A DNA stretch of 32,000 nucleotides, taken from Candidatus Saccharimonadota bacterium (GTDB lineage: Bacteria > Pseudomonadota > Gammaproteobacteria > Johnevansiales > Johnevansiaceae). Shown one piece after another: positions 1 to 30,160 of the stretch. The stretch spans positions 270,001 to 302,000 of the forward strand of contig NC_018677.1 in assembly GCF_000300075.1 (NCBI RefSeq), written 5' to 3'. The translations under genes and the position numbers were made by a program. The notes under the pieces are model-generated. The model was not told where the DNA came from, ran no database searches, and was given only the letters and a program-made list of their open reading frames with translations. Numbering within the stretch: the first letter of the stretch is position 1; each line of letters opens with the position of its first letter.

Positions 1-221
1 AATAAATAATTAATAACAAACAATCAACGCAACCATTAACAACTTATCCTCTAACCATTTACACAACTATCCTCTAATTAATAACAACTAATAAAAGCAA
101 CCATTATCATCTTTTATATAACACTATTTTATCTAATTTAAGCTACTTCTAAACATTAACAACTTAACCTCTAACAAACTAACCTCTAATAACTAACAGA
201 TAACCATTTTATTTATTACAC

Positions 222-290
222 CATCTAACATCTAACATCTAACCTAACACCTAACACCTCTAACAACTAACAAACAACAAACAACAAACT
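222..290. repeat. Compound heptanucleotide microsatellite in C-strand orientation: (CATCTAA)3, (CCTAACA)2, then (CAAACAA)3
   Basis: Read directly: ccatctaacatctaacatctaacctaacacctaacacctctaacaactaacaaacaacaaacaacaaact. Confidence 0.85.
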
Positions 291-1175
291 AACCTCTTTA
301 ACATCTTTAAAGCAACCTCTAATAACTAAACCTCTTACCATCATCACATAACCTCTTAAAATACAAACTACAACCTTTATCTTCTACCAACATTCCTCTT
401 TTTAACAAACATCCTACAAACTCCAACATCTAATCTCTTAAACCACCAACTATTCCCTTTTCTTCTTTTTTTTTACAACACTAATTATAATTATGTACAA
501 CTTCTTTGTTATTAGTAAAATTTAACAACAATACAATTAAGAAACCATTATACAAAAAACAGTATTAATAGACAGAATACAACATCTAAAAAAAAAAATA
601 ATACAAATATGTAAAAAAAAAATATCTAACAGATAAAAAAAAAGAACAACAAATATACAACCTCTAACAAAGCAACCTCAAATCAAAGAAATAAAGATCT
701 AAAAAATATAAAAAAATACAACATATAATAAAAATATTTAAAACAAAAAATAAAGAGAATAACAATAATATAACAATTGAATAAAAAAAATAACAACATA
801 ACAGATAATGTTAAAACACAAAAAGCAATAACGAAGAAAGCAAAACATAAAAAGAAAAAGTTTTAAAATAAAAAAAAAAAACAACAAGTATCTAAAAACA
901 ACATAAAGAAACATTAAACAATAACGATTGTAGTTTAAGTAAAATAATAAAGAAAGAATATTATTCAAACAAAAAGTATTAACAAAACCAATAAATCAAA
1001 ACGAAACAAGAAATATAAATAAACACATTTTTAATAACTTGTACAACACATTTTAATAAATTACAAATATACATATCAGCAAACAGCTATAAAAAAAAAA
1101 CATATAAAACATAAAACACAATTTTAAAAAGCATAAAAAATATAAATAAAAAAACAAAGACAAAAATAACAAGAG

Positions 1176-2048
1176 GTGATTTCCAGTATGAGACATAAAC
1201 CTAGTTGGATAAAAATACGTGTTCCTCTATATAATGAAATTAATAATATAAAAAACAAAATAAGAAAAACATACTTACATACAGTTTGTGAAGAATCATC
1301 TTGCCCTAACATACTAAATTGTTTTAATGAAAAAATTGCAACCATTATGATCTTAGGAAATAAATGTACTAGAAAATGTCCTTTTTGTGATGTGTTGTAT
1401 GGAAAGACAATTAAGATAAACTATTATGAACCTTTTGATATAATTAAAATACTTATTAAGTTAAAAATAAACTATATAGTTATAACTTCAGTAAATCGCG
1501 ATGATTTAGAAGATGGAGGTGCTAACCACTTTTCAAAATGTATTGGTGCAATAAACCGTTTATATAAACATATAAAAATAGAAATTTTAATACCTGATTT
1601 TAGAGGTAAAAGTGATATTGCAATTAATATTTTAATTAAAAACAAACCTACTGTATTAAATCATAATATAGAGACTATACACAATTTATATTTGCAAGTA
1701 AAACCAGGTGCAACTTATGATATTTCACTTAATTTATTAAAACAAATAAAAAAATATTGTCCAAAAATAAAAACTAAATCAGGTTTAATGGTAGGAATTG
1801 GAGAAAACGATAAACAACTAATAAATGTTATTAAAGATATAAAAACAAATCAAGTAGATATTATAACTATAGGGCAATATATTGCACCATCGAATTTTCA
1901 CTTGCCAATTAAAAGATGGGTTCATCCAACAAGTTTTTATTTTTATGCAAAACTATGTTATATTTTAGGTTTTAATTATATTGCTTCAGGTCCGTTGATA
2001 AGATCTAGTTATAAAGCAAAAAATCAAAATTATGGAAAAAACATATAA
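1176..2048 (+). CDS. lipA: Lipoyl synthase
   Basis: 290-aa ORF. It carries the N-terminal cluster motif CEESSCPN and the radical-SAM motif CTRKCPFC, as in LipA (compare CEEASCPN...CTRRCPFC). AAGAGG lies at 1171-1176. The ORF track starts at GTG 1176, but the in-frame ATG at 1188 is the more likely start. Confidence 0.93.
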   Translation: MISSMRHKPSWIKIRVPLYNEINNIKNKIRKTYLHTVCEESSCPNILNCFNEKIATIMILGNKCTRKCPFCDVLYGKTIKINYYEPFDIIKILIKLKINYIVITSVNRDDLEDGGANHFSKCIGAINRLYKHIKIEILIPDFRGKSDIAINILIKNKPTVLNHNIETIHNLYLQVKPGATYDISLNLLKQIKKYCPKIKTKSGLMVGIGENDKQLINVIKDIKTNQVDIITIGQYIAPSNFHLPIKRWVHPTSFYFYAKLCYILGFNYIASGPLIRSSYKAKNQNYGKNI

Positions 2049-2352: not shown

Positions 2353-3042
2353 TTAACACTAATGTGTTTTTTTTATTTGAAAACCTAACCTTGCTTACTA
2401 TATGTTGTGTTCTTTCTTATCTCTCTATTTAACTCTTATTTATTTTTATTTGTTTTATATATAATATAACATCTTCTTTATTTTTATTTTTTTTTGATCT
2501 TTTATTTTACTCTTTTTTGTACTTAGAGGATACGTTATTAATACTTGTGTTATGTTTTCTAACTATTTTATGTTTTATCTTTATCTTTATGTTGTATAAT
2601 TAAAGTTATATAAAATTGTTAAGTTGTTTGATAGTATTCATTAGAGTTTATGCTTTTTTAGTATTTTGTTATCCGAAGTTGATGGCAATCGGCCTTATTA
2701 TTTGCTTAATTGTTGTTTATTGTGGTTTTAATAACTGGTGTATATTCAGATTTTGTATTTAAGAACAGTATAAAATTGTTTAGATGTATGGTATATGATT
2801 AATTTAAAATTGTTATTTCTTTCTGTATTATTTTGGTTAAAAAAATGTTTGCTTCGTTAAAGTTTTGTTGCTGCTTTAGATCTTGATATTTGCTTTATGG
2901 TGGATTGTTTTGTGGTTTATGTTTTTAAAAGATGTAGATGCTTAGTTATTGTTATTTGTGTTTTTTGTTTACTGTATATATTGTTAGAATTTGTATCAGT
3001 GTTGTTTGTATTAGTGATTTGTTGTTGTTATAACGAAAACAG

Positions 3043-3155
3043 TTATATAAGATAAAAAAATAGTTGTATTGGTGTATAATTGTTGTAAAGTTAATTACCG
3101 TCATATTATATAAGATAAAAAAATGTTGTATTGGTGTGTAATTGTTGTAAAGTTA
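3043..3155. repeat. Direct repeat of about 50 nt, two copies, period 63 nt
   Basis: ttatataagataaaaaaatagttgtattggtgtataattgttgtaaagtta at 3043-3093, against ttatataagataaaaaaatgttgtattggtgtgtaattgttgtaaagtta at 3106-3155. Confidence 0.85.
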
Positions 3156-3185
3156 TATCAAAAAGAGTAAAGAATTAGATTAATG

Positions 3186-3403
3186 GTTTGTTGTTTGTTG
3201 TTTGTTAAGGAAGTAAAAGAAATAGATTTGTGGTTTGTGGTTTGTGGTTTGTGGTTTGTTGTTTGTTGTTTGTTAGTTGTTAGTTGTTAGTTGTTAGTTG
3301 TTAAGGAAGTAAAAATGGAATTTGTGGTTTGTGGTTTGTGGTTTGTTCTTTGTTGTTTGTTGTTTGTTAGTTGTTAGTTGTTAGTTGTTAAGGAAGTAAA
3401 AGG
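3186..3403. repeat. Higher-order tandem repeat of three units (about 96 and 87 nt). Each unit is (GTGGTTT)n-(GTTGTTT)n-(GTTAGTT)n ending in GTTAAGGAAGTAAAA
   Basis: The terminator motif ttaaggaagtaaaa occurs at 3205, 3301 and 3388. The heptamer runs between them were read directly. There is only 1 C in nt 3181-3420. Confidence 0.9.
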
Positions 3404-3996
3404 ATAAAAAAAAAGAAAGGTGTGTAATGTTGTGAGAAAGGTTATTTGATAAAGTATAAAGGTTATGACAAAGGCTGTTGTGAGAGGTTTGTTAAAAAAA
3501 GAAAAGTTAGGTTATAAGGACGGACGGATATAGAATATGAGAAAAATTGTTTTGTTAAGCAAATAGGTTATAAGGTATTATACATGTTGTGAGATACTGG
3601 TTGTTAACAAAAAAAAAAAAGTACGTCATATGTTGAATTAGGGTGTTAAGTAAGAATTTGTTATTAATTTATTAATTAAACGTGTTGTAAGAAATATTAA
3701 ATAAAGTTGTGATTTGTGTTGTAAGATTTTGATTTTATCTTTATCTTTATTGTTATTGTTATTGTTAAGCGGATTTTATGAAATGTTGTTAAGCTATTAA
3801 GCTGAATTGTTGTAAATTATTATGTGGTATGATATTGTTAAAGTTTTTATTTTTAGCTGTTAGTTTCTTTGTGGGTAAGTATTTTGTTGTTAACTATTAG
3901 TTTTGTTTGTGTTTAATTTAGTTGTTAAATAGTAGTTTTTTTGTGCATTTGAAGTTTGTTGGTAAGTTGTGTGTATTGTTTGAAGTTAAATGTAAA

Positions 3997-4080: not shown

Positions 4081-4091
4081 TTATATAAAAT

Positions 4092-5345
4092 CTATTGAAC
4101 AATGTTATTTAGATTAAAAGTAGTATGCAAGACATGAAGTGCTAAATCCATATAGTCGTCAAAAACAAATATAGATAGTTTAAGCTCTGATGTAGATAAA
4201 AAAAGAATAATTATGCCGTGTTTTTCTAAGGTATACACAACGTTATGCAAAATACATTTATGAGAGTAGATCCCAACTCCAACAATAGAAATTATAACAG
4301 ATTTATTATCGGCTAGAATGTGTCCACAAAAGTAAATACAAATATATTTTTGTATTGTGTGAAATAATAAATTATAATCAGATTTAGATATAGTAAAAGT
4401 TATAATAAATTGAGTGGTTAAGTTTTTTATATTTTGAATACAAATATCTATTTTGTGATCTGAAAAACAAATCAAAATGTTATAGCAAACATAAGGAAAT
4501 ACTTCACAAGAAACAATTACAGTAATGTTTTCAATATTACAATTATATGTAACTCCTGAAATTAACGGGTTTTCCATTTTCTTTTCTAAAAATGACCTCT
4601 TTTGAATTAGTAATGTACCTGGATTATTATCAAAAATTGATAAAAGTCTAACAGGCATATTAGATTTAACTGCAAACTCAACAGAGCGTATTTGTAATAC
4701 TTTCGATCCTAAACTAGACAATTCTAACATATCTTCTACAGTAATATATGAAATTAAACTTGAGTTATTACATAGTCTAGGGTCTGTACTGTACACACCA
4801 GATACATCTGTATAAATTTGACATTCATCTGCGTTAATAGCAGTAGATATAGCCACAGCGGTAGTATCTGAACCGCCTCTTCCTAATGTTGTTATATTAC
4901 CATACTTATCTATTCCTTGAAATCCTGCAACTACCACAACAATATTATTATTTATATCCTTATTTATTACTGAAGTATCTATATGTTGTATACGAGCTTT
5001 TGTATACACACTATCGGTAAAGATCGATAATTGTGCTCCTGTATAAGATTTTGATTTTACCCCAACAAGATTTAAAGCAATTGATAATAACGACATAGTT
5101 ACTTGTTCACCTGTTGATAGCAAAACATCTAACTCTCGATGATTATATATATCGTTTATTGTTTTTTTTTTATACATTAGTTTTGCTAAACATAACAATC
5201 TATTTGTTTCTCCGCTCATTGCTGAGACTACAACAATAATTTTCTGTTGTTTTTTATAAAAGAAACTTATTTGTTTTGCAATGTTTTTTATATTTTTAAT
5301 TGATCCCACTGAAGTACCTCCAAACTTTTGTACAATAATTCCCAT
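4092..5345 (-). CDS. lysC: Aspartate kinase
   Basis: 417-aa ORF. The N-terminus IVQKFGGTSVGS is the aspartokinase signature, GRGGSDTTA is present, and the C-terminal region is ACT-like. The start ATG overlaps the stop of the upstream alaS fragment as TAATG. Confidence 0.92.
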   Translation of the reverse strand: MGIIVQKFGGTSVGSIKNIKNIAKQISFFYKKQQKIIVVVSAMSGETNRLLCLAKLMYKKKTINDIYNHRELDVLLSTGEQVTMSLLSIALNLVGVKSKSYTGAQLSIFTDSVYTKARIQHIDTSVINKDINNNIVVVVAGFQGIDKYGNITTLGRGGSDTTAVAISTAINADECQIYTDVSGVYSTDPRLCNNSSLISYITVEDMLELSSLGSKVLQIRSVEFAVKSNMPVRLLSIFDNNPGTLLIQKRSFLEKKMENPLISGVTYNCNIENITVIVSCEVFPYVCYNILICFSDHKIDICIQNIKNLTTQFIITFTISKSDYNLLFHTIQKYICIYFCGHILADNKSVIISIVGVGIYSHKCILHNVVYTLEKHGIIILFLSTSELKLSIFVFDDYMDLALHVLHTTFNLNNIVQ

Positions 5346-6646
5346 TATAAACCTCTTTTAAATAAAAAAGTTTTTATATTTGTTTTTAATGTTTTAGTAT
5401 ATAACATATTAAAATTGTTTATACTAGTCTTAAGATATGAAACATTTGTAGTTGCATTATAAAAAATTGTTTTATTTGTTTGTAAAACTTGTTTAAAAAA
5501 AACACTATATGGTCTAAATTTTAAACAGTCATTCGTTATTTTAATAAATACGTTTATATTATGTTTATTTAAAACATAAACAATTATTATACTTTTATTT
5601 ACTAATTTGTTTACGATGCTATGCAGTATTACAAACAAATCTTTTTTGTACTTACTTTTTATTTTGTATATTAAAAATTTATAACCAAAAAAATAAAACA
5701 TTTTACTAAGTAATTTGTTTATTTGTTTTTGTATAGTTATTTGTTTAAACAAGTTAAACTCATCAAGAAGCACTTTGTTTTTATTTTTAAGATGTTTAAT
5801 ATTTTTTTTAACATTATTTAAACATAGATTGCTAGCAAACGATAAATCTTTTAGAGTTAATTTGTTTTTTAAAATATAACGAACAGCATTTTTATTAGTT
5901 ACTGCCTCAATACGACGTATACCTTTAGATACACATTGTTCTGACATAATACAAAAACAACCAATATTTTTTGTGGTTTTGATGTGAGTTCCATTACATA
6001 CGTCTATGGAATAACCTCCCTCTTTTCCAATAACAACTACATTTTTATGTTTTATATTTTTTTTTTGTTTAGATAAAAGTTTAATTAAAATTATATGTTG
6101 TTTGGCTATTGCACGATTTATTAACAGTTCAATTATAAATAAAATTTTGTTTGTCAACGGTTTATAAGATTTATATTCAAATATTATTTTATTTTGATTA
6201 ATAAAAAATCCTTTTTTTATTAGTTTTTTTTTAGCCACTCTTTGTATTGTTACATTTAATAAATGTATAGCTGAATGAGCAACACTTATATTATAACGAA
6301 TAATTTTGTCTATATAACAATTAACGTGTGTTGTATTTGAAAAATAACCTTTCAATAAAGTTCCTACATGAAAAAACAAAGAATTATGTTTAATCACGTT
6401 ATATACTTTAAATTTTCCTAATTTATTATAAATATATCCTACGTCACTAATGACTTGCCCACCTTTTTCAAAAATAAAAGATGATATTTTTAAAATAATT
6501 GTTCCTTGTGTATTTTCGCTTATAAAGTTTATGTTTTTACCTTCTTTATTTAAGATTTTTTGTATTTTTGTTTTATAAAAATATATATTACTAAAAAAAA
6601 AGTTTTGAGTTATTATACTGTCCTTTATTGTATATAAATAAAACGA
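5345..6646 (-). CDS. alaS: Alanine--tRNA ligase, C-terminal part only (beta-barrel, editing and C-Ala regions). The aminoacylation domain is absent, so this is a truncated gene or possible pseudogene
   Basis: The ORF track calls 5345..6397 with a GTG start. My hand translation shows the frame stays open upstream to a TAA at 6647-6649. The extension still matches AlaRS: FIFEKGGQVISDVG against FYAESGGQVGDKG. The editing-site zinc motifs HSAIH (HxxxH) and CNGTH (CxxxH) and GIRRIEAVT are conserved. There is no ATG, GTG or TTG codon in the extension, and nothing resembling the N-terminal ~450 aa is present upstream. Confidence 0.8.
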   Translation of the reverse strand, partial: SFYLYTIKDSIITQNFFFSNIYFYKTKIQKILNKEGKNINFISENTQGTIILKISSFIFEKGGQVISDVGYIYNKLGKFKVYNVIKHNSLFFHVGTLLKGYFSNTTHVNCYIDKIIRYNISVAHSAIHLLNVTIQRVAKKKLIKKGFFINQNKIIFEYKSYKPLTNKILFIIELLINRAIAKQHIILIKLLSKQKKNIKHKNVVVIGKEGGYSIDVCNGTHIKTTKNIGCFCIMSEQCVSKGIRRIEAVTNKNAVRYILKNKLTLKDLSFASNLCLNNVKKNIKHLKNKNKVLLDEFNLFKQITIQKQINKLLSKMFYFFGYKFLIYKIKSKYKKDLFVILHSIVNKLVNKSIIIVYVLNKHNINVFIKITNDCLKFRPYSVFFKQVLQTNKTIFYNATTNVSYLKTSINNFNMLYTKTLKTNIKTFLFKRGL

Positions 6647-6989
6647 TTAAGTTGTAATAATTCTTTTATCTCTTGCATATTATAAAACAATGTTTACTTT
6701 TAAAACACTTAATTTATACTTTCTTTTAACTTTTCGATGTTTATTATTTACTATCAAAATACAACTTTATTTTTTTTTATAACAAACCTTTTTTGCAACT
6801 TAAATTGTGTAGATCTTTTTTTTTAAAGCAATACAAAAAATTTTTTTTATTTCTATTAATAATAGCTAGTATATACTAACTTTACCGTTTTCACCCTGTT
6901 ATATACTAACGTTCTTCTTCAAACTGCTTTACTACTATATAATAAACTATATATTTCAGCTAAGAGCTAAACTTTTTTATCTTTTAGCA

Positions 6990-7115
6990 TATAACAAGTT
7001 TTATTTTGTTTGAATAATATATTAACTTTCTTCATTTTTTCTATAACAACTTTTTTATTTTGTTTGAATAATACATTAACTATCTTTATATTTTCTATAA
7101 CAACTTTTCTAAAAC
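6990..7115. repeat. Tandem repeat, period about 53 nt, about 2.4 copies
   Basis: The unit tataacaa(g/c)tttt..attttgtttgaataata(t/c)attaact..ttttc was read at 6990, 7042 and 7096. Confidence 0.8.
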
Positions 7116-7640
7116 CTGATTAACTATTTTAATCTTTTTATACAACGTATTTTTTTTAACAACTAATTAATGTATTTATTATTACATTAAACAATTTACA
7201 TTTTTCCTTTAACGCTAATTGAAAACATTTAACAACAACTAGCTTTTAATTTAACCATAAACTTTTTTAAACCACCTAAGACTAAGAACCTAACTGTTTT
7301 TTATCTACAACGCATAACCTAAACAACCACAATACACCTACTGATTACAACTTTACACCTCTTATAATACAACATTGAAATATAGTAACTAAATACATAA
7401 AAAAATTACTGAATTATATTAAATTAATATAACAAAAAATTGATTTTACGCTAATAATAACACCAAAACAATACATAAAACACAAAAGTAAAGTATTGCT
7501 AACATCAAACAACTATTAACAAACACACCTTTTGCTTTTATTTTTATATATGTTTCTTACTATATACTAAATTGATTACAACAAACACACATATTTAGGT
7601 TGTTGTTTTATACAACTTTCATAATTTTTACTAAACTGTT

Positions 7641-7736
7641 AACAACAACTAACAACTAACAACTAACCACTAAACACTAACCACTAACCACTAACCACTA
7701 ACCAACAACCAACAACCAACAACCAACAACCAACAC
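7641..7736. repeat. Compound heptanucleotide microsatellite in C-strand orientation: (CAACTAA)3-(CCACTAA)5-(CCAACAA)5
   Basis: Read directly. There is no G in nt 7641-7740. The reverse complement (TTAGTTG, TTAGTGG and TTGTTGG units) is related to the array at 3186-3403. Confidence 0.9.
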
Positions 7737-7878
7737 AAAACTGATAACAACAAACGTATAAAAAATAACAAAACAAAAGTTTGTAAAAAAATAAACATAC
7801 AGCTAATAAAAACAAAAAAGATATATTCTAAAACATACTACTTTTGTAGTAAACATAAAAAATTAAGTTTAAATTGTG

Positions 7879-10470
7879 TTATAAGCTAACAACTATATTT
7901 ATTACTTTTGCATGTACGAAAATAAGTGTATGGATTTCTTTACAGTTCAGATAACCTTTTATAGATATAGAAGATAAAATAGTACTTGCAAACGTTTTTG
8001 TATGATAATTTAAAGGCAATTTAATTTCTTTACGTATTTTTCCATTAATCTGTGCTAACACAGTAAACAACTGACCTAACATGCAATGTTTATTATAACT
8101 AGGCCATTTTGCATCTATTACAGCATATGAGAACCCCAAAACTTTCCATAAAACATGGGTTATGTGAGGAACAATAGGGGCTAAAATTAGAATTATTGAT
8201 TTCAAAGCTTCCCTTGTTACTGCCAAGCCGATAATACTACTGTCTATATCTATAAAGTGTAATACTAAGTTAGTTAATTTCATAACAGTTGATATTACAG
8301 TATTAAAGACATGTCTTCCAATCATATCTGAAGTAGCTTTTTTTATAGTTTTCTGAAGTTGTCTATATAAATTAAATTGGTCTGGCCTTAATGATGAGAG
8401 TTTTATTATGGTATGCTCTGAGCCTGAGATATATATATATGTATGAACTATATTCCATAACCGCTTAATAAACCTGCTGGAACCAATGATGCCAGATTCA
8501 GACCATATAAGTACTTGTTCCGTTGGTGCAGAAAACATAACAAACAAACGTAGAGTATCAGCACCAAATCTATTAATTAGAACATTAGGATCAATGCCGT
8601 TGTTTTTAGATTTAGACATTTTTTCAATACCGTTTCTTATAACAATTCCACCATCTCTTTTAACCGTTGGTATTATATTTCCGTTTTTTTTATCTTTTAA
8701 CAAACAAACATCTAAAGGATTAAACCACTCTTTTATGCCAAAACTTTCTCTATAATATGTATAAGTTAAAACCATACCTTGAGTAATTAATTTTTTGAAA
8801 GGTTCATCACAATCAACCAATCCAAAGTCGCGCATTAATTTATGAAAAAAACGAGCATACATTAAATGCAAAATTGCATGTTCTATACCGCCTATATACA
8901 TATCTACTGGTAACCAATAATTTACCCTTGCATCAAGAATTGAGTTGTTATTATCAGTACAACAAAACCGTGCGTAATACCAAGATGATTCTATAAAAGT
9001 ATCAAAAGTTTCTGTGTCCCGCACCCATCCATTTCCTAACACGTAAAAAGACGGTATTTTTTTTAAATTAAATTTACTGTTCAAACAGCCATGTTTTGGT
9101 AAATATACAGGTATTTCTTCATCAGTAAGGGGCGTTTGTTTACCTGTTATACCGTATTTTACTGGTATAGGAGTACCCCAATATCTTTGCCTAGAAATGC
9201 CCCAATCACGTAACTTTAGTTTTTGTTTTACAACACCACTCTTATATTGTTTTATAAAATAAAAGATGTAATCAAAAGCTTCAAAACAAGTTATGTTGTT
9301 AAAAATACCTGAATTGATAATAAATCCAAAATCAGTATATGCATTTTTTGAAATATCAGGTACTTTACCATTTATATCAGAAACAACAGTCTTAAATGGC
9401 AATCCATAAGTGTTTGCAAAATCCCAATCTCTGTGACTGTGAGCCGGAACACCCATACTTGCCGTAGCACCATATTCAAAATATCTAAAACTAGAAACAT
9501 ATAAAGGCAAAATTTCATTTGTTATTGGATGTAAAACATTGTATCCAACATATAATCCAAGTTCTTTATTCTTTAATGTTGCCAATGAACATTTACCACA
9601 AAAAGTAAAAGTATTACAAAGTTTCTTTATTTGATAATTATATTGCGCAGCTAATTCAACTAAATGATGATCAGGTGCTAAAAGTATATAAGTAACGCCA
9701 AATAAAGTGTCTGGTCGTTGTGTAAATACTTTTAAGTAAGAGTAACAATTAGGTACAGAACCAATAACTTTAAATGACACTTCTATTCCTTTATATTTAC
9801 CAATCCAATTAACTTGCATTTTTTTTACAGACTCTGGCCAATCAATATTTGCTAAACATCTCAAAAGTTCATAAGCGTAATCTGTAATTTTTAAAAACCA
9901 ACTAGGAATTTTTCTGTGTTCTATTTTTGCACCAGACCGCCAACCAATACCGTTAATTACTTGCTCATTAGCTAAAATCGTCTTTTCTAGAGGATCCCAA
10001 TTAATAATTGCGTTATTTTTATAAATAACGCCGTGCTCGATCAATTTAATAAAAAACCATTGTTCCCAGCGATAAAAATCTATTTTACAAGTTGTTATTT
10101 TCCTATCCCAATTATAAGAAAATCCTAAGCTTTTAAGTTGATTATACATATAGTAAATGTTTGAATTAGTCCAGTCAGTAGGAGAAACAATATTTTTTTT
10201 TGCAGCGTTTTCTGCAGGCATACCAAAGGCGTCCCACCCTATAGGGTTTAATACATTTTTACCTAGCATACGTTGTGAACGAGAAATAACATCACCTATT
10301 GTGTAGTTACGAACGTGTCCTATATGTAGATTGCCGCTAGGATATGGAAACATACATAAACAATAAAACTTTTCCTTATTAGGTATTTCTACTATTTCAA
10401 AACAATTGTGATTGTACCAAAAATTTTGAGCTTCTAGTTCAATTTTTTTATAAGAAAAAGGATACATCAT
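7879..10470 (-). CDS. leuS: Leucine--tRNA ligase
   Basis: 863-aa ORF with the class I motifs PYPSGNLHIGH (HIGH) and KMSKSKNN (KMSKS). Length is close to that of bacterial LeuRS. Confidence 0.96.
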   Translation of the reverse strand: MMYPFSYKKIELEAQNFWYNHNCFEIVEIPNKEKFYCLCMFPYPSGNLHIGHVRNYTIGDVISRSQRMLGKNVLNPIGWDAFGMPAENAAKKNIVSPTDWTNSNIYYMYNQLKSLGFSYNWDRKITTCKIDFYRWEQWFFIKLIEHGVIYKNNAIINWDPLEKTILANEQVINGIGWRSGAKIEHRKIPSWFLKITDYAYELLRCLANIDWPESVKKMQVNWIGKYKGIEVSFKVIGSVPNCYSYLKVFTQRPDTLFGVTYILLAPDHHLVELAAQYNYQIKKLCNTFTFCGKCSLATLKNKELGLYVGYNVLHPITNEILPLYVSSFRYFEYGATASMGVPAHSHRDWDFANTYGLPFKTVVSDINGKVPDISKNAYTDFGFIINSGIFNNITCFEAFDYIFYFIKQYKSGVVKQKLKLRDWGISRQRYWGTPIPVKYGITGKQTPLTDEEIPVYLPKHGCLNSKFNLKKIPSFYVLGNGWVRDTETFDTFIESSWYYARFCCTDNNNSILDARVNYWLPVDMYIGGIEHAILHLMYARFFHKLMRDFGLVDCDEPFKKLITQGMVLTYTYYRESFGIKEWFNPLDVCLLKDKKNGNIIPTVKRDGGIVIRNGIEKMSKSKNNGIDPNVLINRFGADTLRLFVMFSAPTEQVLIWSESGIIGSSRFIKRLWNIVHTYIYISGSEHTIIKLSSLRPDQFNLYRQLQKTIKKATSDMIGRHVFNTVISTVMKLTNLVLHFIDIDSSIIGLAVTREALKSIILILAPIVPHITHVLWKVLGFSYAVIDAKWPSYNKHCMLGQLFTVLAQINGKIRKEIKLPLNYHTKTFASTILSSISIKGYLNCKEIHTLIFVHAKVINIVVSL

Positions 10471-10943
10471 AAATGTATATTTGTTTTGTTTAAATTTGAA
10501 TATTCAATATTTTCCATGTTATCAGCATCAGTTACATTCTTATGATTATACCCGATTAAGTGTAATAAACCATGAACTATTATATGAGCACAATGAGCAA
10601 TAAATGCTTTATTCTTTTTAAATGATTCATATAAAAGTAAAGTGGGAGTTATGACTAACTCACCTAATAATTGTATGTTAATTCTTTGCGAAAGAGCTTC
10701 ATATGAAAAAGAAATTATATTTGTTAAAGAATTAAAACCACGATAATAACTATTTAAGCCAATAATTTCCTTATATTCAACAAAACGAATATTAAAAACA
10801 ATATCTTTATAATGTTTATATTTTGGCTTTAAAAACGAACAAAACCAAGAACTTAGTAATGACTCATTTGGCACGATTTTTTTAATTGTATTATTTTTTA
10901 TAAACTGCATATGTACGTATACACATTTTATTTTCTTTTTCAT
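10467..10943 (-). CDS. ybeY: rRNA maturation endoribonuclease YbeY
   Basis: 158-aa ORF with the metal-binding motif HGLLHLIGYNH (HxxxHxxxxxH). It overlaps the leuS start by 4 nt (ATGA). The true start may be the internal Met (MQFIKN). Confidence 0.85.
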   Translation of the reverse strand: MKKKIKCVYVHMQFIKNNTIKKIVPNESLLSSWFCSFLKPKYKHYKDIVFNIRFVEYKEIIGLNSYYRGFNSLTNIISFSYEALSQRINIQLLGELVITPTLLLYESFKKNKAFIAHCAHIIVHGLLHLIGYNHKNVTDADNMENIEYSNLNKTNIHL

Positions 10944-11801
10944 TTTTTTACTTTTTGCTGTTAGTTTATTTGTGTTTGAGCTTATATTTGTTTTTTTTGT
11001 TCTTATTTCTTTTTTTTTTACTTTATTATTATTTTTATGTGTTTTTTATCTGTTATATTTTGTGTTTATTTTTATGTAGTTTAAAACAATTTATTTATCT
11101 TTTTTATGAATTATGTTTTCTGTGCAATCTATATATGTTTTGTTGTGTGCTTTATGTTTTTTTTCTATATTTCTTACTCTTATGCTTTTGTTGTTATTTT
11201 CTTTATTCCTTAGAGTTTTATTTCTTATCTGTTAGATGCTTTTTTTATGTTGTTAGAGTTTTGTTGCTTAAAACTGTTATTTTTTTGTTATTTTGAGGTT
11301 AGTTATTTGATATTAGATGTTTATTTCTTTGTTATTTAGATTTTGTTATATTTTGTTAAGAGTTATATAGTTTTAGATTATATAGTGTATGTTATATGTT
11401 ATTATTCAAAGTTTGTTATATGATAGCTGTTAGAATCTGATATTTGTTATTTAAATTAGCGGTTTGTTTAAAAGGAAATTCTCTTTAAGTTGTATTCTTT
11501 TATTATATTTGAATTAAGATTTTAGATGTTTATTCCTTCTATTTTTTTGTCTCTTTTAGTTTTTTATAGTTTTTGTTGTATTAATTTATGTTTTTAAGTA
11601 TATTTAGAGTTTGTAGGTTTATTTATTAGAGGTTAGAAGTTAGATTTTTGTTTGTTAGAGGTTGTTTATTTGTTAGAGTTTAGTTTATTTTAGCGGTTAT
11701 TTAGTAGAGGTTAGAGTTTTGGGTTTTAGAAGTTGTAGGTTAGCTTAAGTTGTTTGTTTATTAAAAGTGTTGTTGTTTTTGAATATAGTTCTTTCTTTAA
11801 A

Positions 11802-11841
11802 TTTATAGAGGGTTAAATGTTTACTTTATAGAGGGTTAAAT
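11802..11841. repeat. Direct repeat tttatagagggttaaat, two copies, period 23 nt
   Basis: Copies read at 11802-11818 and 11825-11841. Confidence 0.75.
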
Positions 11842-13972
11842 TGTTAGTTATTATTTGTTACTTGTTATTTGTCTCTTAAAATCATTTCTTTGCTTTATTT
11901 ATTTGTAGGTTTAAAAGGCAAAGTAAAGTGTAATTCTGTTTAGACTACTTGATAATGTATTAAAACTTAAAAAGTTGTGTCTAATTATGTTGTTATGTAG
12001 ATGGTTCAGCTGTTACGTTGTTAAATTTTAGATGTTTTGTCTAAATGCTATTATGTAAACTCTGATTGTGTTGTTATGTAGTTGTTCAGAAGTTGTTATA
12101 AAAAGGTGTATGTAGTTATGTATTGTATAATACAAAATATTATTATATTTACTTACTATTAATTTAAAATTGTTTGCTGTTGTGAACTTAGTGTCGTATA
12201 TTATTATTTAATTGAATTAGAATTAGTTATATAAAAATGAGTAATTAAGTAGGAATAGTGAGCTGTATTGTTAATTATATATTATGAATAAATGTTTTGT
12301 TGTTACAAGAAAACGAAATGTTAAAATTAGATGTATGTTTAATTGAAGTTATGTAGTTGTGAAATAAAAAAGTAGTGTAAATATGTTAAGCTATTATGAT
12401 GTTTAGATTGTATGAAGTTAAAACGTGTAGTAATAGGTTATGTGCTTATGAATTAAAGTTGTTATGTATTGTGTATATAGGTAAGTTGTAGTTAGTAGGA
12501 GTTGCAATGGATGCATGGTGTAAGTGAATTAATTTATATGATTTTTGTATAAAGTTTGTTGCTGTATAAAATAAAAAGTAAACAATAGGGGTATAATAAT
12601 GTAATATGCTTAATGTAGTAATATCGGTGTTTGTTAATATGCTTGTTTATTGTTTTGGTTAAGTTTATATTAATTGATGGTTGTTTAATATGTTGAATAA
12701 AATAGTTATTGTTAATATATAGTATTAATGTTTGATAAAAAAAGTTATTAGAAAAATGTGTTTATTTGTTAGTGTATTAAGTTTATTTATGTTATTGGTT
12801 AAAAGTATAAAAAGGTATTAAAATCATTTAAATTAGCTGTGTTGTTCGGTTTCTTTTATAGTTTGTTTTCTTTAAAATTAGAGGTTTGTTATTCTTTTTC
12901 TATTAATTGTGTATTAAAAACTTATACGTTATTAGTTAATGCAAATTTGTACTTTCTTTTTTTTTTTTTATATTAATTTAGCTTTCTAGTCTTTAAATGT
13001 TTTTAAGAAAGTTTGTTAACTGTTGTATTCTTTAAAAAGATAGTTTATATGTTGTTTTATTATTACATTATTTATCAGTTTTGTATTAGTTATATGTAAA
13101 ATATGTGCTTTATGTTTGTTTAAAGGATTGAAAATTTTTTTTGTTTATACATTTGTTATTTGTTGATGTTATCTTTTTTTATTTTGCTTTAGGTACTTTT
13201 CTGTTATGTGTTAAGTTTTTATTTTTAAACTTTTATGTGTATTTTTGATTAGTTTGTATGAGCTGTGTTATATGAACTTAATATAAGCTGTAAATTTATA
13301 AAGTTGTACTTTAAAGGATGGTTTGTATGTTGGTAAAACAAGAAAACGAAATATATAACAGAAGAGAGAAGATTGTATAAAAGAAAAATGTAATCTGTAT
13401 ATTTGTGTTCAGTTGTTAATGGTATGTGATAGGTAAGTATGAAATAATATGATATATCAAAGAGAGTTAAAGGAAAAAAGTAATATGTGGTAGTGGTTTT
13501 TATAAGGTTTATGGTCGTTGTTTGTTAAATGTGTTTATGTTCAATAAAAAGCTATATTAGCTTTAGTAAAAGTGCTGTGTATTAAAGTTAGAAAAAACTA
13601 AGGATGTCATACTAAGTAAAACAAAGACTAACAATATGTTAATGTTAGGAATTAGATGAAATTATGTTAGCTATTATTGTTTGTTAGAGATTTGTAGGTA
13701 AATTTTGTTTTGGTATATTGCTATTAAGTTCATTTTTGTATCATTCTTTTTAATGTTTGTTATTCATTTTTTATGATATTTGAAAACTGTTATATGAACA
13801 AAACAAGTACTTAAAATGTTATTGTGTTATAAAAAAAAGACTAAGAATCGGATGGTAAAAGGAAGAAGGTGTTATGTATGTTTAATGGTAAACTGTTTAA
13901 ACTAGTAAATTTTAGAAAAAAATAATAAAATAAGTAATTTAAATAAGGTAAAAAAAACAAGAAGGAAGAATC

Positions 13973-15154
13973 ATGAATATTATACCGAATCATAAAGGTT
14001 TATTTGGTAATTTCGGTGGACGTTTTGTGTCAGAAACATTAATACCGTTAATAATAGAGCTTGAAAAAACATACAAAACAGCTAAAAAAGATGAATCTTT
14101 CAGAAAGGAATTAGCATATTATCAGAAAACGTATATAGGCAGATCTAGTCCACTATATTTAGCAGATAGACTAACTCAAGCATTAGGTGGCGCTAAAATA
14201 TATTTTAAAAGAGAAGATTTAAACCACACAGGTGCTCACAAGATTAATAATTGCATAGGTCAAATTTTATTGGCAAAACGTTTAGGTAAAAACCGTATAA
14301 TTGCAGAAACAGGTGCAGGTATGCATGGAGTGGCTACTGCAACAGTAGCTGCAAGATTGGGTATGAAATGTGTAATTTATATGGGTAGTACTGATGTAAA
14401 AAGACAAAAAGAAAACGTTTATCGAATGAATTTGTTAGGTGCTAAGGTAGTACCTGTAAACTCAGGTAAAGGGACATTAAAGGATGCTATGAATGAAGCA
14501 TTAAGAGATTGGGTAAATAATATAGAAACTACATTTTATATTATAGGTACAGTTGCAGGACCTCATCCATATCCGTTAATAGTACGCGACTTTCAATCGG
14601 TAATTGGTAAGGAAGTACGAGAGCAAATTATAAAAATTGAAGGAAAACTGCCTGATATTTTAGTAGCGTGTATAGGTGGCGGGTCTAACGCAATGGGATT
14701 GTTTTTTCCAATGATAAAAGATAATACTGTACGGATGATAGGAGTAGAAGCAGGAGGGCATGGTATAGAAACAGGGAAACATGCAGCTAGCTTAAATGGA
14801 GGTGTGCCTGGAGTTATTCATGGAAATAGGACTTATATTTTACAAAATAAAGATGGACAGATAAAAGATGCGCATTCAATTTCTGCAGGTATGGACTATC
14901 CAGGCATAGGACCAGAGCATTCTTATTATTATAAATGCAAACGTATAGATTATGTTTCAGTTACAGATAAAGAAGCTATAGAAGCGTTTAAAAAATGTTG
15001 CTATTTAGAAGGTATAATACCCGCTCTAGAATCAGCTCATGCATTAGCATACGTAACTAAAATAGCTCATAGCTTGTCAAACAAAACAACTATAGTAATA
15101 AATATGAGTGGAAGAGGCGATAAAGATATATCTATAATACGGGAGCATAGTTAA
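13973..15154 (+). CDS. trpB: Tryptophan synthase beta chain
   Basis: 393-aa ORF with [10 protein letters not shown], the PLP-lysine region [11 protein letters not shown] and GGGSNAMG. The SD sequence AAGGAAG at 13962-13968 lies 4 nt before the ATG. Confidence 0.97.
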
Positions 15155-15159
15155 AAAAA

Positions 15160-15966
15160 ATGAAGCTTAATAAGCGTATAATAAATTGTTTTGAACAAAA
15201 AAAAAGAGCGGCTTTTGTAACGTTTATAACAGCAGGAGATCAAGATTACGAAAAATCTTTAACATTAATAAATAGTTTACCTAAAGCAGGAGCAGATATT
15301 ATCGAATTGGGTATGCCATTTACAGATCCTATCGCTGACGGTGAAATTATTCAGAAATCAACTCAAAGGTCATTAAAAACTGGTCAAAATCAAAAAAAAA
15401 CACTTGAATTGGTAAAAGCTTTTCGTTTGTTTAATAAAAAAACACCAATAATATTGATGGGGTATTACAATCCAATTTATAGATATGGAATAAAAAAGTT
15501 TATTAAAGATGCTAAGAATGCTCAAATTGATGGATTAATAATTGTGGACTTACCACCAGAACACGCTCAAGAAGTTAGTGTTCCAGCAAACAAACAGGGA
15601 ATTGATTTTATAAATATAATAACTCCTAACACTAACATTAAAAGAATACCTTTTATTGTAAAAAATTCATCAGGATACATTTATTATATATCAATAAATG
15701 GAGTTACGGGAGGAAGTGTTCCAATATTTTATGAAGTAGAAAAAGCGGTTAAATTAATACGTAAATACACAAATTTGCCAATTGCAGTTGGATTTGGTGT
15801 AAAAAACAGAAACTCAGTAAAAAAACTCGCAAACATAAGTGATGCGGTTGTAGTAGGATCTGCTTTATTAAAACAAATCGAAATACATTGTTATGACCAA
15901 AAAACAGCAATTAGTAATGTATTAAACTTAACAAGTAGATTATCTAGAGGATTAGTTAAAATTTAA
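15160..15966 (+). CDS. trpA: Tryptophan synthase alpha chain
   Basis: 268-aa ORF starting 5 nt after trpB. It contains ELGMPFTDPIADG and GFGV motifs typical of TrpA. Confidence 0.95.
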   Translation: MKLNKRIINCFEQKKRAAFVTFITAGDQDYEKSLTLINSLPKAGADIIELGMPFTDPIADGEIIQKSTQRSLKTGQNQKKTLELVKAFRLFNKKTPIILMGYYNPIYRYGIKKFIKDAKNAQIDGLIIVDLPPEHAQEVSVPANKQGIDFINIITPNTNIKRIPFIVKNSSGYIYYISINGVTGGSVPIFYEVEKAVKLIRKYTNLPIAVGFGVKNRNSVKKLANISDAVVVGSALLKQIEIHCYDQKTAISNVLNLTSRLSRGLVKI

Positions 15967-16151
15967 GGTTGCACTATACATGCAACTGGACAAACTTGTT
16001 GACATTGTGGATGAGGAAAAACACCTATGCATTCATTGCATAAATCATGATTAATTACATAAACTTCTTCACCTGGAAAAATGGCATTGTTTGGACAAAC
16101 AAGTTCACACATATCACAGTTTATACAATCAGTTGTTATAAGCAACGACAT
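15963..16151 (-). CDS. yfhL: Small 2x[4Fe-4S]-type ferredoxin, YfhL-like and C-terminally short
   Basis: 62-aa ORF. [22 protein letters not shown]...CNECIG...QCQQVCPV closely parallels E. coli YfhL ([22 protein letters not shown]...CTECVG...TCQKVCPI). Its stop codon overlaps the trpA stop within TTAA. Confidence 0.85.
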   Translation of the reverse strand: [62 protein letters not shown]

Positions 16152-16153
16152 AT

Positions 16154-16717
16154 CTAAAATTTCCCAACAAAATCTATGTTTTGTTTAAAGGTTTTTGATC
16201 CGTCTGTCCAGTTAGCTGGACAAACTTCATTTGGGTGGTTAGTTATATATTGTGCAGCTTGAATTTTTCTTATTAATTCTTTTGAATTTCTACCAATGCC
16301 TATAGCATTATATTCAGCTAGTTTTATTTTACATTCAGTATCAATCACAAAAGTACTCCGTTCAGCTAAACCGGTTTCGGCAACAAACACGTTAAAACTA
16401 CGTGATATATTTCCTGAAGGATCTCCAATCATTGGAAATTTAATTTTAGAAACCGTAAATGAACTATCATGCCATGCTTTATGTGTAAAGTGTGTATCTG
16501 TTGAAACACTATATATTTCAACACCTAAAGTTTTAAATGTTGAATAATTTTCAGATAAATCTAAAAGTTCAGTAGGGCATACAAAACTAAAATCAGCAGG
16601 ATAAAAAAATATAACAGACCACTTACCTTGCAAATCTTCATTTGAAATATTTATGAATTTTCCATTTAAATAAGCCGTAGCAGTAAAGGGACGTATTTTT
16701 TTATTTATGATAGCCAT
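16154..16717 (-). CDS. ahpC: Alkyl hydroperoxide reductase subunit C (typical 2-Cys peroxiredoxin)
   Basis: 187-aa ORF with WSVIFFYPADFSFVCPTEL, STDTHFTHKAWH and the resolving-Cys region EVCPANW. It is near-colinear with E. coli AhpC. Confidence 0.95.
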   Translation of the reverse strand: MAIINKKIRPFTATAYLNGKFINISNEDLQGKWSVIFFYPADFSFVCPTELLDLSENYSTFKTLGVEIYSVSTDTHFTHKAWHDSSFTVSKIKFPMIGDPSGNISRSFNVFVAETGLAERSTFVIDTECKIKLAEYNAIGIGRNSKELIRKIQAAQYITNHPNEVCPANWTDGSKTFKQNIDFVGKF

Positions 16718-17464
16718 TAAAATCCTTTTTATTAAAGTTTTTTATATCTGGTTTAATGTAAACAATATTGTTATGTATTTACTAAAGTTTATTAATGTAC
16801 TTTGTGGCTTTATGTAACTTTTATTTTTTGTTATTGATTTTTTATTAAAGTTCTTTGATAACAAATTTTAAGGCTTTATGTATGTTTTCATTTCTTTTAT
16901 ATGTTTATTTTTTGTATTTATGTTTAATTTTTGCAAATTACTTTATTTTTCTATAATTTTAAGTTGTATTATTAAGTGATTTGTTTTGCAGAATTTATAA
17001 AATAAGGTTTGCAGTACAAACAAATGTTTTATGTATTTCGGTAAAAGATAGTTTTATCTATTTTTAGTTACTAATTTTATTTTTTGTATTCTATAAGAAA
17101 TGTTAATAAGTATCAATTATTATTAGTTGTATTGAAAAAATAGTATATGTTTGTTATGAGAAATATATATGTATAAAATGAGAGAAAAAAGTAAGTAAAT
17201 GTAGTTGTTAAGTGTTGTTGTTAAAAAATATTAAGATTAGTTGTTACTTATTTTGGTTTATATTATTTAGCATTAACTTGAAAATTGTTTTGTTAAAAAG
17301 ATTTCTATATTCTTTTTATTATTTACAGAAAGTTGTTTTTGTAATCATCATTTAATTAAACGAAATAAAATAATGTATGATTTATTAAAGCTTTATTTGT
17401 GTTATATATAAATGCTAAATATATTTTGTTATTTCAAAAAAAATTGTCTGGTGCTTTTTATATA

Positions 17465-23346: not shown

Positions 23347-23480
23347 TGTTATTTCTTGTTTTCTTTGCTGTAATTATATAGACCCTATAAGTATTATTCT
23401 TCTTTTATTTTCTGACTTTAAACACTTTTTCTGCCCCTATTTTTTTAAACTTTTCTATAGTATATCTTTATTTACTGATT

Positions 23481-23572
23481 TTTTTTCGTTCATTATTCTT
23501 TTAACTTTTTTCTATTGCTTTGATCTATTTCGCTGTTACTAAATCTTTTTTTTCGTTCATTATTCTTTTAAC
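23481..23572. repeat. Direct repeat ttttttcgttcattattcttttaac, two copies, period about 66 nt
   Basis: Copies read at 23481-23505 and about 23546-23572. Confidence 0.8.
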
Positions 23573-23816
23573 CTTTATATTTTACCAATGACTACCTTTT
23601 TTTCCATCATTGTTGTCCTTTGTAGCGTGTTATTATAACCTTTTGTTTTCTTTGTAACCTACAATACAACCAATTTACTTTTATTATATATATACCTGAT
23701 TTTTTTTAACTTATACAAATATATTTATTAAAGAACATAGTATCTAAGTACCTTTTTAGCTTTTACCTCAAACATCTAAAAACTAACCTTACACCTTATA
23801 ACAAACTTACCTATAA

Positions 23817-23843
23817 TACAGTACAGTACAGACCAGACCAGAC
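23817..23843. repeat. Pentanucleotide microsatellite (TACAG)3(ACCAG)2
   Basis: Read directly: tacagtacagtacagaccagaccagac. Confidence 0.8.
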
Positions 23844-24198
23844 TTATTTTATGAAATAACCATCTATTATATATTGATCCATATAGTCTACTTTTTTCTT
23901 CTACCAGATCCTTTGATTGTGAAACCAGTTGCGAACCTTATAAGTGTAGTATTTTGTTTAAATATGTATTTTTTGATGTTTAGATATATTTTGCCACTAC
24001 TCTATTCATTCTTTTTAGTTTATAATCTGTCCTTGGTTTAATAGTTTTTGCAATACTACTTTTTTTCTTTTTTTACATCTAATATGTTATTACCTTATGT
24101 TTACTATTTAGTGTCTACCTGTTTCTTTTAACCTAACAAAAACCTAATCTTTTTTTTTAGTGCTAAACTACAAAACTTTTAGCTAAAGCACTAACTAA

Positions 24199-28099: not shown

Positions 28100-28272
28100 A
28101 ATTATATTTTTTTACTTTTTTAAAAATCAAAATCTAAAATAAATAAAACTAATATCTACTAATCTACTATCTAAATACATATTGTTTCATTAGTTCCATA
28201 ATAAGTAACCAATTTTATAGAAACCCTTTATCATAAACCATTACCTCATCAATTCTTTTATTCCATCTTTAT

Positions 28273-28385
28273 AGCAACAACAACACCCTATCTTTATACC
28301 CTTTTTAGCAACAACAACACCCTATCTTTATACCCTTTTTAGCAACAACAACACCCTTTTTAGCTTTTTCTCCAACAACAACAAG
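28273..28385. repeat. 34-nt tandem repeat, about 3 copies, with a 12-nt deletion in the third copy
   Basis: agcaacaacaacaccctatctttataccctttt starts at 28273 and 28307. The copy starting at 28341 lacks tatctttatacc. Confidence 0.9.
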
Positions 28386-28938
28386 CTATATCCTTCTTTG
28401 TTTAGTATGCCTTTTAACATCAAACATCAAACACATAACCTTTTATAATTAACATTTAAACATACAGCCCATCTACACAAATACACTGTATTAACACAAC
28501 CATAACAAAAAGTAAACTATTATCATAGTACGACATATCTTGTACACACAAAACAAAAAGATAACAAAGACAATAAAAACCGTACACACAACAAATAAAG
28601 AAAACAAATAAAATCACAAAAAAAAATACAGCATAATCACAAAAAAAAAAGAGAAAAATACAAAACTTTAAATAGAACTAAATACTAACACAACACATAA
28701 GTTACTTAAGACAAAAAGAAAGTACAAATAAAGGGAAAACAACAACGAAAATAACATCAAAAAGTATTAAACATTTAATCAAAAAATAATACAAATTCAT
28801 ATAAAAATATAACAAAAAAAAAGAAGCGAAAAAGTAGTAGATGTATATTATTAAAGAGTAATAAATACTAAGATTTTATTAGCTATCAGCTTTAAATTAG
28901 TAGAAAACTTTCTGTTTATAAAAACAAAAGGAAATTTT

Positions 28939-29768: not shown

Positions 29769-30128
29769 AAATATGGTTTTTATATAGTTATAAAAGATAT
29801 AGTTAACTGAGTATAAAAGTATCTGAGCATCATAAAAAAACAAGTTATGTTAGGCTTAAGGAATAGTTCAAAAAATATACAAAAATTTATCTTAAATTAG
29901 CAAAAGAAAACATAGCTCAATAGTGAGTTATGAAGTGCAAATAGGAATATACTTGCATAAAGAATTGGATATCAACAAAATTCATGTAGAAAGAATAAAA
30001 GTAAAAGATAATAAAATTATTGTTGTTCCTATATTATGTGCATGTTTAAGTATGATGATGAATATTCAATAGTGCTCATATTTAGCTTAAAGGTAAAATG
30101 TCGTAACAAATTTTATTTTCTATTATTT

Positions 30129-30160
30129 TGTATCTTGTATCTTGTTTGTTGTTTGTTGTT
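30129..30160. repeat. Short compound heptamer array (GTATCTT)2(GTTTGTT)2-3
   Basis: Read directly: tgtatcttgtatcttgtttgttgtttgttgtt. It uses the same GTTGTTT unit as the array at 3186-3403. Confidence 0.7.

Follow-up and report, generated by a model that had tools for sequence, protein, structure and literature searches.

Spacer DNA that probably grew in place by heptamer slippage in Portiera of Bemisia tabaci, with one unit family in both orientations

The window analyzed here (the whole stretch of 32,000 nt, positions 270,001 to 302,000 of contig NC_018677.1) contains the divergent genes ybeY and trpB, separated by a spacer of 3,029 bp that is the subject of this analysis together with the other long spacers sharing its short-repeat vocabulary. 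Window DNA is 100% identical over 20.3 kb to CP016304.1, from “Candidatus Portiera aleyrodidarum” of the whitefly Bemisia tabaci; YbeY is matched residue for residue in CP007563.1, CP003867.1, CP016304.1, and CM014390.1 (complete genomes of ~351 to 376 kb); and LeuS has a Halomonadaceae affinity, its homologues being named Portiera by NCBI. Judged by these matches, the window is Portiera of the B. tabaci complex, an obligate whitefly endosymbiont. Its genes include lipA, tRNA-Ser, lysC, a shortened alaS, leuS, ybeY, trpB, trpA, a ferredoxin gene, ahpC, ileS, argD, lepA, groEL/ES, argG, grxD, mrp, and several tRNAs, and the spacers between them are unusually long, amounting to 34% of the 48.5 kb examined when the window was extended with neighboring loci of the same genome. 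Comparisons were made with the Portiera of Pealius mori (L089; stable and ancestral-like), the Portiera of Singhiella simplex (L090), and a second Bemisia lineage, the Logan contig L088, whose LeuS is 98% identical. The ybeY-trpB spacer and its parts are as follows.

10944..13972, + strand: ybeY-trpB spacer, 3,029 bp, G/T-rich (A914 C146 G519 T1450), holding the motif cluster
11540..11880, + strand: most repeat-like and most indel-active part of the spacer, with units TTAGAGG, TTAGAAG, TTAGAGT, and TTGTTAT; includes the focal 150 bp (11600-11750)
13896..13972, + strand: what is left of the short ancestral spacer, immediately upstream of trpB

The same junction is occupied by only 81 bp in the Portiera of P. 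mori and 70 bp in that of S. simplex, both of which keep the gene order argD / ileS-(ahpC)-fdx / trpA-trpB / ybeY-leuS. Positions 13896 to 13955 align with the P. mori spacer (L089:9439-9493) at 82% identity over 60 nt (blastn, E value of 2e-7). Because the adjacency is intact, with no gene lost and no rearrangement, ~2.95 kb of new DNA must have grown in place: compared across these genomes, the spacer is shown to have expanded ~40-fold from ~75 bp without gene loss or change of neighbors. An earlier reading of this DNA, made from its letters alone (the original prediction), had argued that such spacers do not reflect independent decay at each locus, and growth from ~75 to 3,029 bp across an intact ancestral adjacency bears this out. 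An origin by pseudogene decay is rejected, as no gene was lost at the trpB|ybeY junction. In L088 the counterpart spacer measures 2,981 bp and is 98.4% identical, with indels of 13, 17, and 10 bp at 11599, 11673, and 11739. Searches of the 3-kb spacer against the flanking genes and the relatives by tblastx and blastn returned only the ancestral-spacer remnant and low-complexity matches, and the spacer open reading frames (ORFs) tested had no Pfam or NCBIfam match. Independent Logan assemblies support the spacer as real rather than an artifact of one assembly. Of the short-read Logan contigs, L085 and L087 end within the spacer 326 bp upstream of ybeY, and L086 does so at 239 bp; since they stop inside repeat-rich spacer, arrays of this kind break assemblies.

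Short tandem units recur in the other spacers. Tandem Repeats Finder identified period-7 arrays in six spacers, and autocorrelation peaks at lag 7 in four spacers, as it does when 15.4 kb of spacer sequence is pooled (0.399 versus about 0.355). The spacers and arrays concerned, beyond those listed above, are these.

1..1187, - strand: right part of the lipA-upstream spacer, C/A-rich on + and G/T-rich on -; the whole spacer is ~4 kb
222..293, - strand: heptamer arrays CATCTAA (7.3 copies) and CTAACAA (9.7 copies), reading TTAGATG and TTAGTTG on the G-rich strand
260..289, no strand: inverted-repeat arm, a perfect 30-nt inverted repeat with 3254-3283, the two flanking lipA
2649..3996, + strand: G-rich part of the lipA-tRNA-Ser spacer, with arrays at 3186-3403
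6587..7878, - strand: alaS-leuS spacer, C-rich on +, with array AACAACT (13.6 copies) at 7644-7735
16718..17464, + strand: ahpC-ileS spacer, G-rich on +, without 7-nt periodicity
23347..24198, - strand: lepA-groEL spacer, C-rich on +, at a rearrangement boundary (in P. mori, lepA is followed by lepB and era)
28100..28938, - strand: tRNA-Leu-mrp spacer, C/A-rich on +, with a 34-nt tandem repeat at 28267-28357
30124..30160, + strand: arrays TATCTTG (3.1 copies) and TTGTTTG (2.7 copies) in the tRNA-Val-tRNA-Lys spacer

Read on the G-rich strand and rotated to a common frame, the units are TTAGTTG, TTTGTTG, TTTGTGG, TTAGATG, TTAGAGG, TTAGAAG, TTAGGTG, TTAGTGG, and TTGGTTG, which are joined by single substitutions into one network around TTAGTTG. 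Units from different spacers lie closer to one another (distance of 2.34) than letter-permuted units do (2.60 ± 0.05; P < 0.0005). The arrays at 3186-3403, composed of (TTTGTGG)n, (TTTGTTG)n, and (TTAGTTG)n within an 87/94-nt higher-order repeat, span 255, 311, and 360 nt in three strains, and the new variants that appear there (TTTATGG and TTGGTGG) keep to the A/T/G alphabet. On its G-rich strand the array at 7644-7735 reads TTAGTTG, TTAGTGG, and TTGGTTG, and the alaS-leuS spacer that holds it differs between lineages by 35- and 14-bp indels. Between lineages, array indels measure 7, 14, and 35 bp and are accompanied by 12 single-base indels, in a total of 21 events. Longer tandem repeats are also present, with periods of 34 nt (2.7 copies, 98% identity; 28267-28357), 62 nt (2.5 copies; 3006-3155), and 54 nt (2.6 copies; 6970-7108), and spacer duplication goes beyond heptamers.

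The same words occur on whichever strand is G-rich. TTAGAGG lies at 11626, 11655, and 12878, with further copies at 1600, 2523, and 22805, and the shorter TAGAGG at 11705, 11806, and 11829; the complement CCTCTAA lies at 48, 71, 168, 183, 257, 316, and 661. TTAGATG is found at 11232, 11313, 11522, and 12028 and its complement CATCTAA at 222, 229, and 236. GTTGTTT and GTTAGTT occur within 3190-3380, the former also at 30148, and their complements at 272 and 279 (AAACAAC) and at 265, 287, and 7647-7661 (AACTAAC). The coordinates first reported for these motifs were all correct except for the third TAGAGG, which had been placed at 11830, and the statement that CCTCTAA saturates nt 48-661 was overstated: the motif is present there, but in only 7 copies over 614 nt.

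To compare these counts with expectation, the G-rich strand of every spacer was put through 1,000 shuffles that preserved dinucleotides and kept the strand. Pooled over spacers, TTAGAGG was observed 10 times against 0.62 expected (7 against 0.2 in the reverse complement of 1-700 and 3 against 0.18 in 10944-13972), TTAGATG 14 times against 1.39, TTAGA 53 times against 19.8, and TTGTTAG 21 times against 5.5, and for these four motifs none of the 1,000 shuffles equaled the observed count; GTTGTTT was weakly enriched (19 versus 10.7; P = 0.015). The motifs are thus enriched over strand-specific, composition-matched controls, and the observation stands. Because they had been picked after the sequence was viewed, unbiased word tests were added. 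The distinct 8-mers common to spacers are mostly accounted for by composition, but the count-weighted D2 statistic on 7-mers lies above that of shuffles for the lipA-upstream spacer (S1) against the ybeY-trpB spacer (S4) (1,944 versus 1,294 ± 85; z = 7.7), for S1 against the second spacer of the window (S2; z = 9.9), and for S2 against the third (S3; z = 7.5). When one partner is reversed but not complemented, D2 drops to the shuffle level, so the word sharing is real and directional. Enrichment, D2, and unit distances all agree with the proposal of a common vocabulary in opposite orientation.

Words shared by several spacers on either strand could also be copies of a dispersed element family, like miniature inverted-repeat transposable elements, repetitive extragenic palindromic sequences, or insertion sequences, inserted in either orientation. 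Two alignments point that way: a 24-nt, 96% inverted match between 648-671 and 11651-11674, and a 270-nt alignment at 79% identity between the reverse complement of 4-282 and 11609-11871 (z = 7.1 over dinucleotide shuffles). The longer of these, however, is no better than block shuffles that keep words of 10 to 40 nt (P = 0.06, 0.14, and 0.23), and nhmmer with either aligned segment recovers only the segment itself in the 48.5 kb. No discrete copy with recognizable ends could be delimited, none of the spacer ORFs tested matched a known family, and array length varies freely between strains; ancient obligate endosymbionts, moreover, lack mobile elements (literature cited in PMC3673631). Since spacers resemble one another only over words or arrays of ~20 to 40 nt, there is no discrete inserted element, and we regard an element family as very improbable. 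The suggestion of an inserted repeat family accordingly fails, or at least lacks support, for want of collinear copies, and of the broader proposal of a single generative process or element family, only the process is retained: replication slippage of short units fits best as the single generative process.

Orientation changes along the chromosome and, in places, within a spacer. In the 48.5 kb, all 11 spacer segments have an absolute skew of 0.31 to 0.64, and its sign flips about six times. One flip, from G-rich to C-rich on the + strand, falls inside the ~4-kb lipA-upstream spacer at about -1150 in the window frame and may mark an old inversion breakpoint; a search for a long palindrome across it yielded only composition-driven alignments of 57 to 60%. 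This spacer (L097:5989-10000, window frame -2824 to 1187) runs between lipA and a weak Pal/OmpA-like ORF of 147 aa that scores below NCBIfam cutoffs. Inverted copies are found as well. The arm at 260-289 that pairs with 3254-3283 also matches 3349-3377 over 29 nt at 100%, a match that the Q strain does not share. Likewise, 3227-3303 and the alaS-leuS spacer (7650-7726) form an inverted match of 77 nt at 74%, which brackets tRNA-Ser-lysC-alaS. In the 1.4-kb ileS-fdx spacer of S. simplex (L090:5324-6720), G-only and C-only segments alternate every 100 to 300 nt and are inverted homologues of one another (60 nt, 80%). That spacer has a strong period of 5 nt (identity of 0.567, 0.512, and 0.488 at lags 5, 10, and 15, versus about 0.35), with units that include TGTAA, ACATA, TTTTG, and CAAAA. 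Taken together, the mirrored arrays, the flips, and the inverted homologues of S. simplex make copying or moving in both orientations a feature of the unstable lineages.

Polarity, in the sense of which strand is G-rich, does not track the direction of flanking transcription (4 of the co-oriented cases agree and 3 disagree), and this is one of several points that make a function for the tracts, whether as regulatory sites, protein-binding iterons, a long trpB leader, or a non-coding RNA, hardly credible. The ~3-kb length of the ybeY-trpB spacer is similar in two lineages (3,029 and 2,981 bp), and its G-rich strand is the trpB sense strand, as a function would have it. Yet Rfam gave no match up to an E value of 1 on either strand, promoter-like sites were not enriched (21 versus 23.1 ± 4.7), no terminator-like sites were found, and both strands are unstructured as single strands (minimum free energy of 0 kcal/mol; z of 0.3 to 0.5). 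Nowhere else in the spacer are indels as frequent as in the focal 150 bp, the spacer diverges (1.6%) as much as the flanking genes or more (0.2 to 1.5%), and the sister lineages manage with 70 to 81 bp at trpB|ybeY. Regulatory or RNA function was rejected on the nulls from Rfam, promoter and terminator searches, and structure prediction, together with the indels. The spacer DNA has no detectable function, and its significance is likely to be as a substrate for rearrangement.

A different cause of polarity is replication: slippage or mutation would make the leading strand G/T-rich, and later inversions with breakpoints in spacers would scramble the orientation. This would add a cause of polarity to slippage rather than replace it. 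The only block collinear with the ancestor (leuS to lepA, 15.5 kb) is in keeping with it, since both of its large spacers are G-rich on one strand, which in P. mori has the G excess at 4-fold sites and is presumably leading (4-fold skew of -0.27 on the L089 + strand), and the two spacers at the edges of the block have the opposite polarity. About six flips per 48.5 kb is of the same order as our rough estimate of ~34 breakpoints per 357 kb (from at least 17 inversions; PMC3673631), and G goes with T in 8 of the 11 segments, a classical leading-strand signature. Against this, only two spacers sit in a block of known ancestral orientation; the 4-fold skew in B. tabaci Portiera is weak and tied to the sense strand, and per-block counts are too small to assign strands. 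The sign of spacer skew is not constant, changing about six times in the 48.5 kb and once inside a spacer, and B. tabaci Portiera strains have lost any appreciable GC-skew pattern (PMC5322561). The flips every 100 to 300 nt within one S. simplex spacer, finally, need local inverted copying rather than replication. We hold a replication origin of polarity to be somewhat unlikely.

The composition of the arrays is close to a single letter of the G/C pair: nt 1-540 contain 8 G and 138 C, 3249-3448 contain 59 G and 1 C, and 11544-11743 contain 46 G and 3 C. Whole spacers in the window have skews of 0.41 to 0.64, reaching 0.9 locally, so the description of the spacers as G-only or C-only is apt for the arrays and does not extend to every part of each spacer. 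In the trpC-rplY spacer, the start (window frame 34443-34700; L092:15505-15760) looks tRNA-like by eye and is followed by a pentamer array, (AGCTT)4; farther along lie TGTGGAC (4 copies) and TTGCAGT (2 copies), both of which break the one-letter rule. In the window genes, 4-fold degenerate sites have 7 to 8% G and 5 to 6% C, with a sense-strand skew of 0.17 to 0.23 in both gene orientations. In the spacers, the major base accounts for 16 to 21% (up to 30% in arrays) and the minor base for 4 to 6%. The minor base is therefore at the neutral 4-fold level, and the anomaly is an excess of G on one strand, not a removal of C. Skew rises with periodicity (rho = 0.25; P = 0.003), as does the fraction of the major base (rho = 0.32; P = 1e-4), and the most periodic quartile has an absolute skew of 0.65, versus about 0.46 elsewhere. 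Such values fit young arrays that arise from G-containing, C-free units and later lose their period and relax; the rest of the spacers is aperiodic yet still about 3:1 G over C.

Strand-specific damage, that is, deamination of cytosine to T on exposed single-stranded DNA or by a deaminase (like bisulfite treatment, kataegis, or repeat-induced point mutation), would likewise leave tracts short of C. Long non-repetitive stretches of spacer do use almost only the letters A, T, and G, most G-rich strands have more T than A, and ssb and several repair genes have been lost (PMC3673631). But G on the rich strand (16 to 30%) is two to four times its neutral 4-fold value while C is about neutral, so G was gained. 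C-to-T-converted spacers aligned to converted genes scored no higher than reversed controls (~48 kb of the genome and 36 kb of relatives), and the ancestral trpB|ybeY adjacency leaves no source sequence for conversion. The four B. tabaci strains differ by ~0.3%, and adding L088 (1.6% in spacers) gives 15 polarized and 67 unpolarized spacer differences, which suffice to reject a transition-driven model but are too few to measure strand asymmetry. Transversions account for nearly all of these differences (A<->T 33, G<->T 21, and A<->C 6, against C<->T 3 and A<->G 3), transitions making up 6 of 67, and C:G-to-T:A changes are not dominant. Deamination as the origin is largely refuted by this spectrum and the three-letter alignment null, and we consider it highly improbable. 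Coding differences in window 3500-21000 relative to L081 and L088 were G<->T/A<->C 33, A<->T 21, and transitions 9; the unusual, transversion-dominated spectrum is plausibly linked to the loss of proofreading and of 8-oxoguanine handling.

The reading that we prefer is that the spacer DNA of B. tabaci Portiera grew in place by slippage of heptamers belonging to one unit family that lies in both orientations, and we put its probability at roughly 75%. The steps would be as follows.

(i) Arrays would arise when short, AT-rich seeds containing G and lacking C underwent replication slippage, against the background of the lost dnaQ, dnaN, dnaX, holA, holB, mutL, ssb, and ruvC. Amplification of such units would raise G to 20 to 30% on one strand and leave C near zero.

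(ii) Point mutation and odd-sized indels would then erase the period and relax the composition, which is why the remaining spacer would be aperiodic but still ~3:1 G over C.

(iii) The vocabulary would come to lie on either strand because arrays, or pieces of them, moved and were copied in both orientations; candidate routes are the many inversions of the genome, inverted duplication, and ectopic gene conversion.

Several observations weigh against this account. Three spacers show no 7-nt period, and the indels of 13, 17, and 10 bp in the focal 150 bp are none of them a multiple of 7. G and C occur together in some arrays, for instance TATCTTG and, in the trpC-rplY spacer, TGTGGAC, TTGCAGT, and AGCTT. 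Seeding and amplification alone do not explain why G-rich strands are rich in T as well, as they are in 8 of 11 spacer segments, and the single polarity of a 3-kb spacer made of many units is left unexplained by the same model. With strand-symmetric mutation, C would arise from A about as readily as G from T, so there may be an added strand bias, either of slippage or of A:T-to-C:G mutation. Behind the shared units, finally, may lie either common descent, with copying from spacer to spacer, or convergence on units that slip easily.

A more general version of the slippage account is decidedly speculative. In endosymbionts whose DNA polymerase III has lost its proofreading, clamp, and clamp-loader subunits, slippage might make non-coding DNA de novo, with a lineage-specific register and an intrinsic strand polarity. 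The register would then measure 7 nt in the Portiera of Bemisia and 5 nt in that of Singhiella, and the products would be three-letter tracts (A, T, and G on one strand). Were it true, the way in which a stripped-down replisome handles the primer-template could be read from unit length and polarity, and 40-fold growth of bacterial spacer DNA would be possible without mobile elements.

Some features of the window genes stand apart from the spacers. The annotated start of lipA (1188-2048) differs by four codons. For TrpB (13973-15154), the best 80 genome matches listed are from alphaproteobacteria (Acetobacter, Thalassospira, and Brucella) at 63 to 68% identity and not from Halomonadaceae, which may be an artifact of a pattern-limited scan or hint at an unusual ancestry of trpB. 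The alaS gene (5345-6586, - strand) encodes only the C-terminal 350 to 413 residues, covering the end of the catalytic-domain model, the editing domain, and the C-terminal part, and the called AlaS length varies by strain (350, 413, and 427 aa). No remnant of the N-terminal aminoacylation domain was found upstream in the alaS-leuS spacer beyond 6607, where the gene’s own 5' extension was the sole match. In CM014390.1 (L084 and L093), lysC is called as 62 plus 343 aa and argG as 154 plus 206 aa, both being intact elsewhere; the splits are either real recent pseudogenizations or assembly errors.

What we describe is already known in outline: it is the 7-bp microsatellite proliferation published by Sloan and Moran in 2013 and revisited by Santos-Garcia et al. 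in 2015 and 2020. Sloan and Moran (Genome Biol Evol 5:783, PMC3673631) report, for B. tabaci Portiera, a spike at 7 bp in the sizes of tandem repeats and indels, repeats concentrated in enlarged intergenic regions, at least 17 inversions, and loss from the lineage of dnaQ, dnaN, dnaX, holA, holB, mutL, ssb, and ruvC. The system is the same in organism and regions, long spacers, the 7-bp spike, and the ties both to rearrangement and to the loss of dnaQ and further genes of replication and repair; unit sequences, three-letter arrays, a unit family in both orientations, and growth of a specific ~75-bp junction are seen here and are absent from the excerpted text of that paper. Santos-Garcia et al. 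(2020, PMC7821994; 2015, PMC5322561) describe, for the Portiera of S. simplex and of B. tabaci, large intergenic regions as well as repeats both direct and inverted. Their 2020 paper lists only 3 tandem repeats in S. simplex, whereas one 1.4-kb spacer of that genome is strongly 5-nt periodic here. In the Portiera papers searched (Sloan and Moran, Santos-Garcia et al., and a 2026 paper on B. afer), tracts of three-letter composition and a single heptamer family across spacers in both orientations seem undescribed, and neither a specific junction grown ~40-fold between intact neighbors nor the 5-nt-period counterpart in Singhiella Portiera turned up. These details make the proliferation testable, as regards both register and polarity in the absence of clamp, proofreading, and single-stranded DNA-binding protein, and mirrored arrays as drivers of inversion. 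Practical value is limited; besides breaking assemblies built from short reads, the arrays make strain markers that are hypervariable.

A deletion bias normally keeps the genomes of bacteria compact, and B. tabaci Portiera is a rare exception with expanded spacer DNA. The ybeY-trpB locus is a clean case, in that an ancestral junction of ~75 bp is now 3 kb built of a few heptamers and still changing between strains. Two familiar phenomena resemble it in part. In replication-associated strand asymmetry, the leading strand of bacteria is G+T-rich, and here too G and T go together on one strand, C and A on the opposite one; unlike that asymmetry, the effect in Portiera is confined to spacers, all but missing from 4-fold sites, and reverses in sign about every 8 kb or even inside a spacer. 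The simple-sequence contingency loci of Haemophilus, Neisseria, and Mycoplasma are slipped-strand arrays in promoters or reading frames that switch genes on and off. The Portiera arrays share with them the short tandem units whose copy number changes by slippage, but, unlike contingency loci, they fill kilobases of apparently functionless spacer and decay in place.

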